From assembly GCA_964622665.1 (NCBI GenBank), contig CAZUUO010000003.1, positions 1 to 45,448 of the forward strand: a stretch of 45,448 nucleotides of DNA, read 5' to 3'. This stretch comes from an uncultured Gammaproteobacteria bacterium. GTDB lineage: Bacteria > Patescibacteriota > Patescibacteriia > Magasanikbacterales > GCA-002688135. The translations under genes and the position numbers were made by a program. The notes below the pieces were generated by a model that worked only from the letters and a program-made list of their open reading frames with translations, ran no database searches and was not told the DNA's origin. This document shows positions 17,355 to 43,728 of this stretch, one piece after another (the stretch's first letter is position 1; the number at the start of each line of letters is the position of its first letter).

Positions 17355-19289
17355 CTACGTTCCGCAGCCACCACCGAGGCAGCAATGCAAGTTCGCCTTG
17401 GGGAAGGGTGCCGTCGGCACTCCCACTCCCTCGCGCACCATCGTGCAGAAGATCTGATTCCCGCCGTAGTAGAGCGAATACGAGAGACACTGCGTCTCAT
17501 CGATACTCATACCGTCGGGGTTGGGCGCGATCCAGGTGGTATCGTTTCCTTGCTTTTCGTCGGTGTCAAACTCGACGTTCAGCCAGTAGTTTCCATCGGA
17601 AACTCCACTGACTTCGTAGCTCCACGACCAACCGGTCGCGTCACCCTGCACAGAATTGACTGGCTTGACTGCCGGCCAACCCTTCAAGTTTTCCATGATG
17701 AAGAGATCGGAGGACGGACACAGGCCATTCTCCTCGATCAACAACACAACTTCTCCGGCCGCTGGACTGAAGCTACCTGCTTCATCAGTCAAACCGTCGC
17801 AGTCGTTGTCGACAAGATCTCCCGACCATTCCGGCTGATCCGGGTTGGCCTTGGGGTTCGTGTCGTCGCAGTCGTCGCCCTTGCTACAGAGCTTCCCGAA
17901 GCCGTCCATGTCAGCGTCCTCACAGAGGCCACTGTAGTCACAGTCGGTGTCGACGACGTTGTTGCAATCGTTGTCGACGTTGTCGCCACAGACCTCAGTC
18001 ATCGGCAACTCATCCTCGTAACACGGCCCTTGGTAGGTGCCATCCCAGCAGAACTGGAGTCCTGCGGTACAAGCTCCCACACCAAGCGTCATTGGATCCC
18101 CGCCGTAACACGAAGTGGCGAGCAAGAACTCGTCATTGAGATCTTCGTCCACCAGTGCATCGCAGTCATTGTTGAGACCGTCGCACAGTTCAGGCACTGG
18201 AAGCACCTGACCAACGCATACGTCCCAAATTCCACCAGTGCAGGTCTCGAGACCTGCGTGGCAAGTGCCGACACCTTCAGTGCCGGGAGTACCACTGTAG
18301 CATGACTGGGTCAGCGGATTGCCGTCGAGGCCTTCATCCGTCGTTCCATCACAGTCGTTGTCCTTGGTGTCGCACGTCTCAGGAACCGGAGTTCCCTCCG
18401 TTGCGCCACACTCAGTCGCCGTCGTATCGGCCGTACAGACCATGACACCCGACGACATACACTCGCCAACACCAACTGAGCAGGAGGTTCCCAAGTCGGG
18501 GTATCCCTCGTCGGTCGTTCCATCACAGTCGTTGTCCTTGGTATCGCAGACATCGGTTGATGGCATCACGCTACCCGTGCAGGTCCCGAAGGTTCCTTCG
18601 AAACACGCTTGAGAACCGAGGTGACACTCGCCAACCCCCGCGTTACCAGGCAAACCGCTGTAGCATGACTGGGTCAATGCTCCATTGTTTGTCTGGTTTT
18701 CGTCGGTCGAGCCGTCGCAATCGTTGTCTTTCAAGTCGCAAGACTCGGGAGCAGGAAGGACAGAGCCATTACAGCTCCCCCACACGCCCGCACCACAAAC
18801 CGAAGTACCCACAACACAAGCACCAACACCCTTGGTGACAGCCGGGCCGTCGTAGCACTCTTTCATGAGGCTTTCGTCGGTCGTTCCGTCACAGTTGTTG
18901 TCTTTGTTGTCACAAGACTCGGGTGCTGGGATCACTTCATTGTCGCACCCAGTGTACAAACCACCGATGCAATACTGCTTGCCCTGCACACACATACCAA
19001 CGCCCGATGTTCCCACCGGACCGTTATAACAAAGCGTAAACGCTCCGTCTTCTCCACAGGGTGTTCCCGGAGGACCAGACGTGAGAGAAGCAGAGAACGT
19101 CGCGTTTTGCTTCGCCTCGTCCATGGAGGCATAACTGTTATTCTTTTTTTCTTCAGGTGTTTCGTTCGCACAAGCAACAAACAAAGAAATGAAAACGCTA
19201 AACAAAGCAATATTTTTCATCATCAGCTTGTCGCCGTGCAACGGCGACTTGTTTCCGGGCACCGCCCGGAAACGGGATTGGGTGATCAT
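17355..19289 (-). CDS. Cysteine-rich repeat lipoprotein with MopE-like C-D-x-x-D-N-D-C-D-G-x-x-D-E motifs; GC-rich foreign-looking gene
   Basis: ATG 19289 has GGAGGAG 6 nt upstream. Lipobox LFVAC has its Cys at aa 40. I hand-counted about 49 Cys. Motifs such as CDNKDNNCDGTTDE, CDLKDNDCDGSTDE and CDTKDNDCDGTTDE (twice) alternate with EGF-like G-V-G-x-C segments. Alternative starts are at 19223 and 19220. Confidence 0.8.
   Translation of the reverse strand: MITQSRFRAVPGNKSPLHGDKLMMKNIALFSVFISLFVACANETPEEKKNNSYASMDEAKQNATFSASLTSGPPGTPCGEDGAFTLCYNGPVGTSGVGMCVQGKQYCIGGLYTGCDNEVIPAPESCDNKDNNCDGTTDESLMKECYDGPAVTKGVGACVVGTSVCGAGVWGSCNGSVLPAPESCDLKDNDCDGSTDENQTNNGALTQSCYSGLPGNAGVGECHLGSQACFEGTFGTCTGSVMPSTDVCDTKDNDCDGTTDEGYPDLGTSCSVGVGECMSSGVMVCTADTTATECGATEGTPVPETCDTKDNDCDGTTDEGLDGNPLTQSCYSGTPGTEGVGTCHAGLETCTGGIWDVCVGQVLPVPELCDGLNNDCDALVDEDLNDEFLLATSCYGGDPMTLGVGACTAGLQFCWDGTYQGPCYEDELPMTEVCGDNVDNDCNNVVDTDCDYSGLCEDADMDGFGKLCSKGDDCDDTNPKANPDQPEWSGDLVDNDCDGLTDEAGSFSPAAGEVVLLIEENGLCPSSDLFIMENLKGWPAVKPVNSVQGDATGWSWSYEVSGVSDGNYWLNVEFDTDEKQGNDTTWIAPNPDGMSIDETQCLSYSLYYGGNQIFCTMVREGVGVPTAPFPKANLHCCLGGGCGT
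17781..19058 (-). repeat. Six to seven tandem Cys-rich modules (57-63 aa, about 170-175 nt period)
   Basis: Near-identical DNA segments recur, for example cgttccatcacagtcgttgtccttggt at about 18340 and about 18510. A related pair, ttcgtcggtcg...gtcgcaagactcggg, lies at about 18700 and about 18875. Confidence 0.7.
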
Positions 19290-39200: not shown

Positions 39201-40736
39201 ATGGCTGATCATATCAAAGTCCCACCCCACAATCTTGAAGCCGAGAAATCACTCTTGGGCAGTATTTTGATTGATGCCAATGCTTTCATTAAAGTTGGTG
39301 ACCAAATCCAATCCGAAGATTTTTATCTTGATGTCCATCGCATTATTTTTACGGTCATGGTGGAGTTATTCTCTCGTCATCAACCGATCGATGTTCTCAC
39401 CCTCTCCAACCGTCTTGAAGAATTGGAACGTCTCCAATCTATTGGTGGCCGCAGTTATTTGGTTGAATTGGGTAACTCTGTTTCTAGTTCCTCCCACATC
39501 ATCCACTATGCATCAATTATCAAAAAGAAAGCGACGTTGCGCCGTTTGTTGAGCGCCTCAGCTGAAATCACTGAATTAAGTTTCAATGAAGAGGAAGATA
39601 TCGACATTATTATTGATCGAGCTGAACAAACACTCTTTTCAGTTTCTTCACAAGGAACCAACAAAACATTTGTCCCGCTCACCAGCATGTTGTCTGAAGC
39701 GTTTGAACGCATTGATGAACTACACCGTGATAAAGGAAAAACACGTGGCGTACCTTCGGGATTTACCGGGCTTGATTCACTGCTTGGTGGATTTCAAAAA
39801 TCTGATTTGATTATTTTAGCTGCTCGTCCATCAGTGGGTAAAACTGCGTTTGTGCTGGACGTTGCGCGCCAAGCTGCCGTGCGTTCCAAATTACCCGTTG
39901 CTCTTTTTTCATTGGAAATGGCCAAGGAACAACTCGTTGATCGTATGATTTCTAGTGAGGCTAATGTTGATCTATGGAAAATGCGTAGCGGACGACTCTC
40001 TGATCAAGGTGAGGTTGATGATTTCACCCGTATTGGTCACGCGCTCGGCGTGCTTGCTGAAGCACCCATTTTTATTGATGATACCCCAGCAACAACCGTG
40101 ACCCAAATTAGAACCAAAGCACGTCGTCTCCAAACAGAACACGGTCTTGGCATGATTATCATTGATTACTTACAACTCATTGATTCAAAAACGAGTGTGG
40201 AAAATCGTGTGCAAGAAATTTCTCAAATTTCACGCTCCTTAAAAATGATCGCCCGTGAATTAAACATTCCCGTGATCGCATTGTCACAGTTGTCACGTAC
40301 TGTTGAAATGACCAAACCGGCTATTCCTCGTTTGTCACACTTGCGTGATTCAGGTTCTATTGAGCAGGATGCTGATATCGTTGTCTTTTTGTATCGTAAA
40401 GCTGCCGACCGCAACTATCGCCTTGAAGATATTCCCCCTGAAGAACGAAACCTCGCTGAAGTCCACATCGCAAAACACAGAAACGGTCCAACGGGTGTGG
40501 TAAAACTATTTTTTGATGCAGCACGCGTGAGTTTTCGTAATTTGGAAAATCATTACGGTGAAAATGGTGGAGCACAAAAATCTCCGCCACCTGCCGCCAA
40601 CCGTCCACAAGCTCCCGCACAACCAAATCAATTCGCACAAAAACCACGTCCGGTATATGGCGTTCCTCGCCCGAGTGCCCCCACTACTACCGGTACACCG
40701 TCGGCACCGAAAGCACCACCGATTCCTCCGATGTAA
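39201..40736 (+). CDS. dnaB: Replicative DNA helicase DnaB with a 59-aa Pro-rich C-terminal tail
   Basis: N-terminal PPHNLEAEKSLLGSIL, Walker A ARPSVGKT, IIIDYLQL and SQLSR motifs. Confidence 0.95.
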   Translation: MADHIKVPPHNLEAEKSLLGSILIDANAFIKVGDQIQSEDFYLDVHRIIFTVMVELFSRHQPIDVLTLSNRLEELERLQSIGGRSYLVELGNSVSSSSHIIHYASIIKKKATLRRLLSASAEITELSFNEEEDIDIIIDRAEQTLFSVSSQGTNKTFVPLTSMLSEAFERIDELHRDKGKTRGVPSGFTGLDSLLGGFQKSDLIILAARPSVGKTAFVLDVARQAAVRSKLPVALFSLEMAKEQLVDRMISSEANVDLWKMRSGRLSDQGEVDDFTRIGHALGVLAEAPIFIDDTPATTVTQIRTKARRLQTEHGLGMIIIDYLQLIDSKTSVENRVQEISQISRSLKMIARELNIPVIALSQLSRTVEMTKPAIPRLSHLRDSGSIEQDADIVVFLYRKAADRNYRLEDIPPEERNLAEVHIAKHRNGPTGVVKLFFDAARVSFRNLENHYGENGGAQKSPPPAANRPQAPAQPNQFAQKPRPVYGVPRPSAPTTTGTPSAPKAPPIPPM

Positions 40737-41130: not shown

Positions 41131-41721
41131 ATGTTTCCAAGCGCACTCAAACATTTGATCGATGCGTTTGGCAAGATAAACGGTGTTGGACCAAAAACGG
41201 CATTACGATATGCGCTCCACACCGCTTATTTTAATCGTCACGATGGTGCCGCACTCTTACGCGCATTACAAGAAGTACAAAACACCTTACATGATTGTAC
41301 GGTGTGTTTTACGATTGCTGATGCACAGTTGTGTCACATTTGTGCGGCAACGACGCGTAACAAAAGTATCGTGTGTGTGGTTGCGTCTCCTCAAGAGGTG
41401 GAAACAATTGAAAAAGCGGGAACTTATGAAGGGGTGTACCATGTACTGCAAGGTCTCTTGAGTCAGGCCGAAGGTATTGATGTTGCAGATATTAAAATAG
41501 CAGAATTGGAAAAGCGGATTGCTGCGGGAGGAATTTCTGAAATTATTTTGGCGATGTCGCCGACCGTTGAAGGTGAAATTACTGCACATTATTTACAAAA
41601 AAAGTTGAAAGGTTTAGTGAAAATTTCTCGTATTGCGCGAGGTTTACCGATGGGTTCGTTGCTTGAGTATATGGATGACGCGACGATTGCCGAAGCGTTG
41701 CGTGACCGAAAAGTTTCATAA
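41131..41721 (+). CDS. recR: Recombination protein RecR
   Basis: HhH segment INGVGPKTALRYA, Cys4 zinc finger CTVCFTI...CHIC, and a Toprim domain. Confidence 0.95.
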   Translation: MFPSALKHLIDAFGKINGVGPKTALRYALHTAYFNRHDGAALLRALQEVQNTLHDCTVCFTIADAQLCHICAATTRNKSIVCVVASPQEVETIEKAGTYEGVYHVLQGLLSQAEGIDVADIKIAELEKRIAAGGISEIILAMSPTVEGEITAHYLQKKLKGLVKISRIARGLPMGSLLEYMDDATIAEALRDRKVS

Positions 41722-41727
41722 AAAGAA

Positions 41728-41769
41728 AAAGACTTCACGTAAACCCGTAGGTTAGTCGTGAAGTCTTTT
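41728..41769. terminator. Bidirectional terminator shared by recR (+) and the GC-rich orphan gene (-)
   Basis: AAA-GACTTCACG-17 nt-CGTGAAGTC-TTTT, with a T-run on the opposite strand as well. Confidence 0.75.
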
Positions 41770-41901
41770 GACAACTGTCGCTGGAAAGACAAGGAAGGGG
41801 GAGGGACGCGTGTTGACACATCCCTTCAAACGTGGAGCGTTAACTCCATGTTGAGCACTCAGAGGATCTGAGCACTCACCCCTCCCTCAGCGAGGCGGTT
41901 G

Positions 41902-42783
41902 TTAGACCGACTCGACGCTGCGGGGGGTGCGCTTGGTGGGCTTCTTGTTGCCGAGACCTCCGAGAAGGCTCGTCACCTGGGCCGTGTCTTCGGCGGAGAG
42001 CACAGGCTCGGTGGGGCGGGTCTTGCGACCGTTCCCGTCGTTGCCCATCGCTGCTACACCGAGGCCACCGAGCAGGTTGCCCATGCTGTGGGTGATCTTG
42101 CGATCGTTTTCACGCATGGCGTTCTGCTGCGCGAGGCGCTCCGTGTCGAGACGGTGGAAGTGCATACGCAGCTTCCACTCGACCTCCAACTCCGAGAAGA
42201 TCTCGGCGAACACGAACGTGAACGGCTTCGTGGCCTGCTTCGCGAGCCGATCGGCCTTGGCGGCGTCGGACCCCCGGAGACGTGCACGAAGTTCCTCGTC
42301 CATGTCCTTGTCGTCGTCATCCGCGTCGTTGTTGCCGAACCCCTTGCTGAGGAGCTGCTTCGCGTACTGCGTACGGAGAGCCTTTGCGTGGGCGGAGCCC
42401 AACGCGTACTTGCTCAGCTCCTTGACCAGCGCCCCGACCAGGGTCGACTCGACGGCCTTGTACTCCGTCGCGGACTTCTTGTCCTCGTCGAGGCCCTTGA
42501 ACACACCGACAGTGATGGCAGCTGCGTTCGCGAGCCGCCAGTCGTTGGCCTCCATGAGCTTGTGGCCGAGGATGAAGAGGTTGGCCGCGTTGGCCTCATC
42601 CCCACCGAGGGCCGGGATCACCTTGAGGGCTTCACAGTACTTGATGGCGCGTGTAGCCTTGGTCTCGGAGATCGTGACGACCTCCTGCTCCCTACCGAAG
42701 CGGACGAACTGGTAGGTGCCGTTCTTCAGGTTGTCGATGGTCTGCGTGGCGAAGACGGAACGGAAGTTGATCTCGTTGCTCAT
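41902..42783 (-). CDS. Orphan 293-aa protein of unknown function, GC3-saturated foreign-looking gene
   Basis: ATG 42783 is preceded by GGAG plus 7 nt. The product starts MSNEINFRSVFATQTIDNLKNGTYQFVRFGREQ... It has an acidic patch NNDADDDDKDMDEE and a Gly-rich basic tail with LLGGLG twice. Third codon positions are almost all G/C. I trimmed 54 codons of leader from the track ORF 41902..42945. Confidence 0.7.
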   Translation of the reverse strand: MSNEINFRSVFATQTIDNLKNGTYQFVRFGREQEVVTISETKATRAIKYCEALKVIPALGGDEANAANLFILGHKLMEANDWRLANAAAITVGVFKGLDEDKKSATEYKAVESTLVGALVKELSKYALGSAHAKALRTQYAKQLLSKGFGNNDADDDDKDMDEELRARLRGSDAAKADRLAKQATKPFTFVFAEIFSELEVEWKLRMHFHRLDTERLAQQNAMRENDRKITHSMGNLLGGLGVAAMGNDGNGRKTRPTEPVLSAEDTAQVTSLLGGLGNKKPTKRTPRSVESV

Positions 42784-42989
42784 GTGTTTTCTCCGTGTGC
42801 GGGTGGCAATCGATGCCCCCGCGTCGTCGTTTGGGAGAGCGCTTGGGCAACCACACCATTGTGGATGACCCTGTGTGCGAACTCCCTCTAGTCTCTGAAC
42901 TTCTACAGTGCAAGAGCGCATTACTTTCCCGTAACGCACTCTCACGATTCGATCGTCTTGTCCTTTTTCATCGTTTTCAGGCGATGAGT

Positions 42990-43154
42990 TTAAGAACTTG
43001 ATAATCTTTGGTCAACAACTCGCTTATTTCTTTCACTCTCGCTTACCGCAAGAATGAAAGACGTGGGCGTGATGCTGACCGTTAAATCGCTACCTTGAAG
43101 CGCAATACATTGTGCACCAAGGTAGAACGAGTGCGTTACTTCTTTTCTTTCCAT
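42990..43154 (-). CDS. Candidate 54-aa small ORF inside the long leader (very uncertain)
   Basis: My own translation: MERKEVTHSFYLGAQCIALQGSDLTVSITPTSFILAVSESERNKRVVDQRLSSS. There is no Shine-Dalgarno sequence upstream, and it is below the ORF-track length cutoff. Confidence 0.2.
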   Translation of the reverse strand: MERKEVTHSFYLGAQCIALQGSDLTVSITPTSFILAVSESERNKRVVDQRLSSS

Positions 43155-43220
43155 TACAGTTGTTAATGTTCTCGATTAAGTAGGCGTTGTTTCTCTTGCC
43201 TCATCTCATCGTAACGTCGT

Positions 43221-43249
43221 AGTATAGCATGGTTGTCAGATTTTGTCAA
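43221..43249 (-). promoter_or_regulatory. Near-consensus sigma-70 promoter with extended -10, driving the leader and the GC-rich gene
   Basis: The minus strand reads TTGACA-17 nt-TATACT, preceded by TGc. This is the best promoter match I found in the window. Confidence 0.6.
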
Positions 43250-43364
43250 GCATCTTTCCATCACTTTTCTTATTTTTTGCTTATTTTAGATGTTTTTATT
43301 GGTAGTATTCTGTATACTCTTCACTATACAAATACAGCTTTCCCTATATTTTATGGGCTTTTTA

Positions 43365-43696: not shown

Positions 43697-43728
43697 AAAA
43701 AACAAGATCCCGGCACGGAGGCCGGGAT
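43697..43728 (-). terminator. Rho-independent terminator after the second sigma/anti-sigma pair
   Basis: The minus strand reads ATCCCGGC-ctccgt-GCCGGGAT (perfect 8 bp), followed by cttgTTTTTT. Confidence 0.75.

Follow-up and report, generated by a model that had tools for sequence, protein, structure and literature searches.

Mutually exclusive helices are known from several kinds of RNA. The mRNAs of the hok family adopt metastable folds, and long-range 5'-3' pairings gate their activation by processing; alternative pairings are likewise found in trp-type attenuators and in three-way-junction riboswitches. An RNA leader with pairings of this kind is described here from a stretch of 45,448 nt of an uncultured bacterium (GenBank assembly GCA_964622665.1, contig CAZUUO010000003.1, positions 1 to 45,448), the whole of which is referred to as the window. 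The leader, or 5' untranslated region (5' UTR), is about 430 nt long (42784..43220) and precedes an orphan gene for a protein of 293 aa (41902..42783); all features lie on the minus strand unless stated otherwise. It is very probable that this region is transcribed into a structured RNA that has a function, whatever its kind, and we infer that it is a new, uncharacterised cis-acting structured leader RNA with a riboswitch-like architecture. The more specific proposal, that the core of the leader is a riboswitch-type two-state element and the whole a bistable regulatory leader acting on mRNA fate, is put forward tentatively as the reading we favour.

The comparison was made with eight related metagenome loci that carry the leader, all with identical gene order, which were gathered from contigs of protein relatives, from contigs of GIY-YIG relatives and through one metagenome match to the H2 hairpin of the leader. 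Scans with the H2 sequence gave no matches in viral contigs, none in genome contigs and this one in metagenome contigs. In total, four leader lineages were available: version A in the window, version B in L003, L006 and L007, version C in L002, L011/L012 and L013, and version D in L004 and L015. A chimeric assembly was considered and rejected, as ENA and Logan assemblies made independently show the same junctions; L017 matches the window at 100% identity and the leader of L016 differs from it at one position, so the junctions between AT-rich and GC-rich sequence are not assembly artefacts.

A previous sequence-only reading of this DNA had placed a near-consensus promoter far upstream of the start codon and a long leader behind it, and both proposals held up. 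The sigma-70 promoter (43221..43249) consists of TTGACA (43249..43244), a 17-nt spacer and TGcTATACT (43229..43221), scores 11/12 and has an extended -10 TG. Each of the related loci that includes the -35, TG and -10 elements has them unchanged, and only the spacer is variable, which makes the distal promoter and its long leader the best reading. Transcription start is predicted at about 43215, giving the leader its length of about 430 nt. The sole proximal promoter-like site (43015..42987, 9/12) sits in the non-conserved middle of the leader. Taken together, sequence comparison indicates that strong purifying selection acts on the leader, a structured RNA of several domains that is transcribed from a conserved and very strong sigma-70 promoter.

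The predicted fold of the whole leader had an energy of -158.5 kcal/mol, compared with -114 kcal/mol for shuffled sequences (z = -9.0), and the plus strand gave z = -6.8. Homologous leaders from the other lineages gave z = -8.2, -7.8 and -6.9, whereas the value for the downstream coding region was only -1.8. A common plan was found in all leader versions, namely P1/P1a, P2, X, the H2 hairpin, one or two variable hairpins, the X':X'' hairpin, Pa, and Pb beside the Shine-Dalgarno (SD) sequence. The first part of this plan forms an invariant 5' domain (43087..43220), made up of the 5'-terminal segment W (CGUUAC, 43216..43211), hairpin P1/P1a (43211..43173), hairpin P2 (43168..43152), an A/G-rich linker, X and H2. 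H2 (CUACCUUGG...UCAAGGUAG, 43090..43125) is identical in every lineage and is present in all minimum-free-energy folds; it is the UACCUUG...CAAGGUA hairpin of the sequence-only reading, located here at 43125..43090.

Over its first 134 nt, the leader of the window is 100% identical to that of L006, whereas the flanking coding sequences are 75-89% identical with 0.45-1.1 synonymous substitutions per site (dS). Between the window and L004, the corresponding values are 92% for the leader segment and 69-74% for the flanking coding sequences, with dS saturated. Substitutions in the 5' domain are few; they either affect predicted loops or change the position of a bulged A in helix P1. Such conservation, which includes stretches predicted to be unpaired, points to a sequence-specific function beyond stability.

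The 3' parts of the leader evolve differently. The variable arm or arms (42949..43086; a long hairpin at 43080..43010 and a second hairpin at 43006..42951) have been replaced in sequence among lineages, but their hairpin character is kept. Many compensatory changes separate the window from L006 in this arm, and in lineages C and D the arm, still a hairpin, holds hairpins resembling repetitive extragenic palindromes (REP-like), which are abundant elsewhere in those genomes. The CAUCG-8 nt-CGAUG hairpin noted earlier is also present, at about 42985..42968. Further downstream, hairpin Pa (GGGAG...CUCCC with an inner CCAC/GUGG stem, 42833..42886) appears in the RNAalifold consensus with compensatory C-G/U-A pairs, and hairpin Pb (GCGGGGGCA...UGCCACCCGC, 42799..42822), just 5' of the SD, is conserved and has an A-U/G-C compensatory pair. 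The SD itself, read from the sequence as GGAG (42791..42794), lies 7 nt 5' of the ATG at 42783 and is kept in all lineages. An extension of the open reading frame (ORF) into the leader, to a GTG at 42945 (347 aa; the frame is open over 42784..42945), was rejected owing to stop codons in lineages B and C.

Alternative folding is indicated by three related 11-mers, which were found exactly where the sequence-only reading had placed them: X at 43139..43129, X' at 42941..42931 and X'' at 42924..42914. No other site in the 45 kb window matches GTAAYGCRCTC exactly, and sites counted with one mismatch number 7 against 1.9 expected. X (GUAACGCACUC, 43129..43139) is the 5' strand of the long-range helix X:X', which is, as had been claimed, an inverted repeat with 11 bp and no mismatch; 12 of 1000 leader shuffles contained a perfect repeat of this type of 11 nt or more. 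The local hairpin between X' and X'', with its GGGAAA loop, is likewise present, but the 11 bp ascribed to it were an underestimate, since the stem comprises 15 bp (42910..42945) and includes four G-U pairs, of which the 11-mers contain two. Conservation covers the lower 9 bp of the stem, where G and A alternate opposite a U, and the upper stem has been replaced in a compensatory manner. The strand specificity proposed for this hairpin was borne out, the duplex having -21.9 kcal/mol as minus-strand RNA and -11.1 kcal/mol on the opposite strand. The G-U pairs weaken both X:X' and X':X'' on the opposite strand, and the new G-U pairs of other lineages again form only in minus-strand RNA.

Covariation of these elements was judged from explicit duplex tables, since MAFFT misaligns them. 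In versions A and B, X is GUAACGCACUC, X' is GAGUGCGUUAC and X'' is GUAAUGCGCUC. In version C, X is GUAGCAGCACUC, X' is GAGUGUUGCUAC and X'' is GUAGCCCACUC (GUAGCCCGCUC in L011/L012), and version D has the same X as version C and minor variants of X' and X''. All three elements are thus altered between the A/B and C/D lineages, X' changing to match X, and both X:X' and X':X'' are still complementary. Native X:X' duplexes had energies of -19 to -21 kcal/mol, compared with -12 to -16 kcal/mol for cross-lineage duplexes; native X':X'' duplexes had -18 to -22 kcal/mol, and three of the four cross-lineage pairings were weaker by 2.5 to 4.5 kcal/mol. The comparison of homologous leaders, which the sequence-only reading had proposed as a check on its competing helices, lends support to both of them. 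The anatomy of the transcription unit, its conservation and its structure likewise emerge, as far as comparison of sequences can establish them.

Either helix was forced in turn in seven leaders; of a total energy of about -155 kcal/mol, the difference between the two folds was -6.6 to +3.2 kcal/mol. The window prefers X':X'', L006 is balanced, and versions C and D prefer X:X'. The predicted pairing of W with X or X'' is weak (-5 to -9 kcal/mol), and in some lineages freed CUCUUGC can pair with GCAAGAG of the 5' domain. In the model that we favour, X would pair with X' in a first fold and close a three-way junction around the invariant H2 and the insertion-tolerant variable arm; this junction (X:X'/H2/variable arm) would be the presumed sensor. 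In a second fold, X' would pair with the adjacent X'' as the local 15-bp hairpin, and the junction would open. As X and X'' could each pair weakly with the 5'-terminal W, the four segments would be able to swap partners. A trans-acting factor, whether a metabolite, a protein or an RNA, might shift the equilibrium between the two folds, and the output would then act on mRNA fate through processing, stability or elongation.

The search for an output, and for a known class of RNA, gave mostly negative results. The sequence-only reading had likened the competing helices to those of riboswitches, attenuators and RNA thermometers; the competing helices were supported, and the usual read-outs of these classes are absent. 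A switch of some class is plausible. The same reading had recognised no known riboswitch consensus, and an Rfam scan agreed, with no matches in the window at gathering thresholds. Against the 4227 models of Rfam 15, the leader had no match even at E ≤ 10, and four homologous loci had none at E ≤ 1. The leader fails the tests for every specific RNA family considered. For a riboswitch aptamer, the observations are an invariant 5' domain and a covarying closing helix X:X', at the low statistical power of only four lineages. With attenuators the leader shares, in silico, four alternatively pairing segments (W/X/X'/X''). No conserved leader peptide was found: a 54-aa ORF over X (43154..42990) lacks an SD, and in lineage C its frame shifts and stops after 20 codons, and a short ORF at leader position 18 has lost its AUG in L004. 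An RNA thermometer (ROSE or fourU type) was rejected because the SD has an unpaired probability of 0.3-0.6 and lies outside the competing helices, and masking of the start region by X was rejected because the pairing is present only in lineages A and B. A group I intron, which was considered because a GIY-YIG gene is adjacent, was also rejected; there was no Rfam match, the promoter stands between the GIY-YIG gene and the RNA, and there is no split host gene.

Several of these results weigh against a two-state switch. No intrinsic terminator was found in the leader, in which the X':X'' hairpin is followed by CACUGUAGAAG and not by a U-run. In six leaders, the unpaired probability of the SD and AUG was equal in both folds, with no masking of the SD, and the accessibility of the 5' end showed only a weak and inconsistent trend between folds. 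With neither a terminator nor SD masking in silico, the output does not seem to act through either route. There is no Rfam aptamer match for the leader, and the downstream gene is an orphan, which offers no regulatory logic for comparison. The covariation of the X elements comes from two major lineages plus minor variants and so probably represents few independent events. Conservation also extends over about 110 bp of untranscribed upstream DNA, which could partly reflect constraint at the DNA level or recombinational spread. Finally, the transcription start is a predicted one, and every structure discussed here is likewise a prediction.

Recombination has shaped the locus as well. The leaders of three version C loci (C1, C2 and C3) are about 99% identical until just past X'', and their genes are about 30% identical with dS saturated; the modules of the leader are also mosaic between lineages. 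Near-identical leaders followed by such divergent genes indicate, on sequence comparison, that recombination exchanges alleles and that one of its breakpoints lies towards the 3' end of the leader. REP-like copies were observed to be inserted into the variable arm in L002, L004, L011, L013 and L015.

The two-state leader was weighed against several other explanations. The leader could instead be a constitutive structural element that, together with the structured 3' UTR, shields the mRNA and supports very high expression, in the manner of the 5' stabilisers of ompA, S-layer or cry genes; X:X' and X':X'' would then be successive co-transcriptional folding steps or redundant pairings, and no switch would be regulated. 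A very strong promoter with an UP-like tract, two highly structured UTRs (z = -9.0 and -8.8), the Pb hairpin directly 5' of the SD and the failure to find a terminator or an SD-masking platform in the leader are all in keeping with such a role. What it leaves unexplained is the near-invariance of linkers and loops predicted to be single-stranded, over 134 nt at a dS of at least 0.5, and the three-way covariation that holds mutually exclusive helices near-isoenergetic in all lineages. This explanation is possible, and we regard it as rather unlikely.

Less credible is the proposal that the invariant 5' part works as an RNA in its own right, for example as a small RNA derived from the 5' UTR or as the partner of a protein complex, which is processed from the transcript, the gene merely sharing its promoter. 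The first 134 nt, with H2, have an rRNA-like conservation, the remaining leader and the gene diverge or have been exchanged, and the mosaic breakpoints lie 3' of the invariant part. However, H2 is followed only by CGAUUU and no terminator, and the covarying pairing of X with X', 190 nt further 3', ties the 5' part structurally to the rest. In addition, there is no Rfam family match and no second copy in the window. We consider this proposal improbable.

The repeats might also act as DNA, with X, X', X'' and the hairpins serving as sites of recombination or cassette exchange, similar to attC or to an antigenic-variation expression site. They would border a constant flank and an exchangeable GC-rich cassette, and their concerted changes would arise from templated repair of quasi-palindromes. 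The abrupt change in the version C loci would place the breakpoint beside the X':X'' hairpin, and the mosaic modules and the REP-like elements inserting in the variable arm would be consistent with exchange sites. However, the window ORFs that were scanned include no integrase, recombinase or reverse transcriptase, a GTTRRRY core site is lacking, and none of the eight loci has an inverted or deleted variant. Because of their G-U positions, the helices are good only in minus-strand RNA. The mosaic is accounted for by homologous recombination between the conserved flanks, with no need of special sites. Dedicated DNA sites seem a little less probable again than a processed RNA. An integron cassette with attC was rejected separately, as no tyrosine recombinase occurs among the scanned ORFs and the R''-like GTCTAAC at the stop codon has no GTTRRRY partner by eye.

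A bolder version of exchange, for which the chances are slimmer, is that a dedicated expression site, composed of the leader, an exchangeable cassette rich in G+C at third codon positions (GC3) and the structured 3' UTR, swaps or diversifies whole alleles of an abundant protein, the X'/X'' hairpin marking or guiding the border of exchange. The antigenic-variation expression site vlsE of Borrelia is similar in having a GC-rich, highly variable cassette between conserved flanks in an AT-rich genome. It differs in that here no silent cassettes were seen in the window, the variation is between diverged genomes and not within a clone, and the protein has no signal peptide. If true, this reading would describe an allele-replacement system in bacteria with an RNA or hairpin component, in a lineage resembling the candidate phyla radiation (CPR), with no known recombinase or reverse transcriptase attached. 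A retron-like msr-msd RNA is barely credible: X:X' (11-12 bp around conserved and variable hairpins) could stand for a1/a2, H2 for the msr hairpin and the variable long hairpin for msd, the order of elements matches and a G directly follows X in all lineages, and yet, apart from these inverted repeats around a conserved hairpin and a variable long one, the reverse transcriptase would have to be encoded elsewhere (no RVT Pfam match or YxDD reverse transcriptase-like ORF in the 45 kb window, none called in the related loci, no such motifs in the downstream ORF), and the conserved domains on both sides, about 75 nt 5' of X and 130 nt of conserved structure 3' of X', are foreign to retron anatomy.

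The orphan gene (41902..42783), which starts at the ATG at 42783, lies within an island of 63% GC in a window of about 40% GC. Its GC3 is 0.87, compared with 0.28-0.39, or about 0.33 overall, for seven neighbours and 0.64 for the MopE-like gene of a second GC-rich island. The minus-strand frame is coding, as synonymous differences exceed nonsynonymous ones (pS > pN) and close pairs have a ratio of nonsynonymous to synonymous rates (dN/dS) of 0.2-0.4. Alleles at the same locus are 23-78% identical in amino acids, all with a GC3 of 0.81-0.89, and the protein evolves at about 10 times the rate of its neighbours. Biased gene conversion at a recombination hotspot is offered as one idea for the high GC3. 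RNA structure within the ORF was rejected as a reason, the folding z being only -1.8, and adenine mutagenesis like that of diversity-generating retroelements was rejected because the sense strand has more A than T.

The orphan protein had no significant match in sequence searches of Pfam, PHROGs, PADLOC, NCBIfam and PDB, and the ORF likewise matched nothing when phage and plasmid collections were searched by tblastn and blastn. Only five relatives were found in protein collections. AlphaFold2 gave an unusable model from 3 sequences (predicted local distance difference test, pLDDT, of 44) and a model with a pLDDT of 70 from 5 sequences. A Foldseek search with the latter against PDB and BFVD found no structural neighbour (best E = 0.025, template modelling score < 0.25), leaving the gene with no family or fold match. 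In L015 (1621-2484, 287 aa) and L017 (3484-4476, 330 aa), a gene had been called on the wrong strand, the window counterpart being 41899..42891 (+), and the true 293-aa product of the window is missing from the protein collection. The rarity of the family is thus partly an annotation artefact, and protein-based searches under-count it. A literature search on hypervariable GC-rich genes of the CPR returned nothing relevant.

The gene is followed by a structured 3' UTR (41720..41901, z = -8.8), with a multi-hairpin junction at 41888..41793 and a canonical intrinsic terminator at 41769..41720 that is common to the convergent recR. This 3' UTR is 77-84% identical in L011, L013 and L014, and the related loci have an extra hairpin. 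The last codons of the ORF (41913..41935) and the region around Pb, just 5' of the SD (42807..42829), are 74% complementary over 23 nt. A long-range 5'-3' pairing is possible there, and chance may explain such a match in GC-rich sequence.

Upstream of the promoter, an A-tract-rich stretch directly 5' of the -35 hexamer (43250..43302) is nearly invariant between lineages and is, from its position and composition, a putative UP element. A dyad, TGTATAGT-N4-AGTATACA, lies at 43311..43330, about 100 bp 5' of the predicted transcription start and within the approximately 110 bp of conserved DNA 5' of the promoter. Its half-sites are kept in all seven of the loci that reach that far, the central 4 nt vary, TGTACAGT stands in the left half-site in two loci, and the general form of the dyad is TGTAYAGT-N4-AGTATACA. 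Conserved halves around a varying centre are a typical operator signature, and the dyad is accordingly a candidate operator.

The 5' neighbours of the transcription unit, on the same strand, are rsmE, an extracytoplasmic function (ECF) sigma factor gene, a gene for a coiled-coil protein and one for a small GIY-YIG protein, and the convergent 3' neighbours are recR, ybaB and dnaB. RecR has no close relative among the GTDB species representatives, the best being 34% identical. The window also contains DUF5667, many glycosyltransferases and large ORFs without a family, and it looks like a CPR genome. The dnaB product (39201..40736, +) ends in about 60 proline-rich residues, an unusual C-terminal tail for a DnaB helicase. 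Small GIY-YIG genes, of which L015 has two, are surrounded by clustered REP-like hairpins of one family (for example CGTCATCCCGGCCTACGAGCCGGGATC and GATCCCGCATCAAGTGCGGGATGACG); sites were seen at 43707..43728 in the window, at 4680-4900 in L004 and at 930-1160 and 2840-3540 in L015. The product of the second GC-rich island (17355..19289, about 57% GC, GC3 0.64) is a lipoprotein of 644 aa with cysteine-rich repeats and metal-binding motifs of the MopE type. A leader shared with this island was rejected, as the MopE-like gene has its own TTGACA promoter with a short, unrelated leader.

If the two-state model is true, large cis-acting RNA switches would gain a new class with this leader, and the lineage it comes from is uncultured and poorly known. 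Its read-out being neither of the two textbook ones, it could indicate an under-explored control of mRNA fate. The conservation at nucleotide level provides a concrete handle for finding further examples and for experiments, for which the consensus promoter should be usable in E. coli.

Among known systems, the three-way-junction riboswitches of the purine and thiamine pyrophosphate (TPP) type are similar in that they are 5' leaders in which a closing helix, here X:X', holds the junction and has its 3' strand in common with an alternative hairpin, here X':X'', around a conserved core with covarying helices. The leader differs from them in its much larger size of about 430 nt, in having no terminator or SD platform and no Rfam match, and in preceding an orphan gene. 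The trp-type attenuators, with 1:2 and 3:4 against 2:3, find a parallel in W:X plus X':X'' against X:X' (with W:X''), but here there is no conserved leader peptide and the 3:4-like hairpin lacks a U-tract. The 5' UTR stabilisers of ompA, slpA and the Bacillus thuringiensis cry genes (STAB-SD) share the strong promoter, the hairpin adjacent to the SD and the structured 3' end before the terminator; the present leader is far longer, its unpaired parts are constrained in sequence, and its competing helices are kept by covariation. The hok-family mRNAs share the mutually exclusive long-range and local helices, and the output here could, as in that family, be processing or stability. They differ in encoding a small toxin and not a 293-aa protein.

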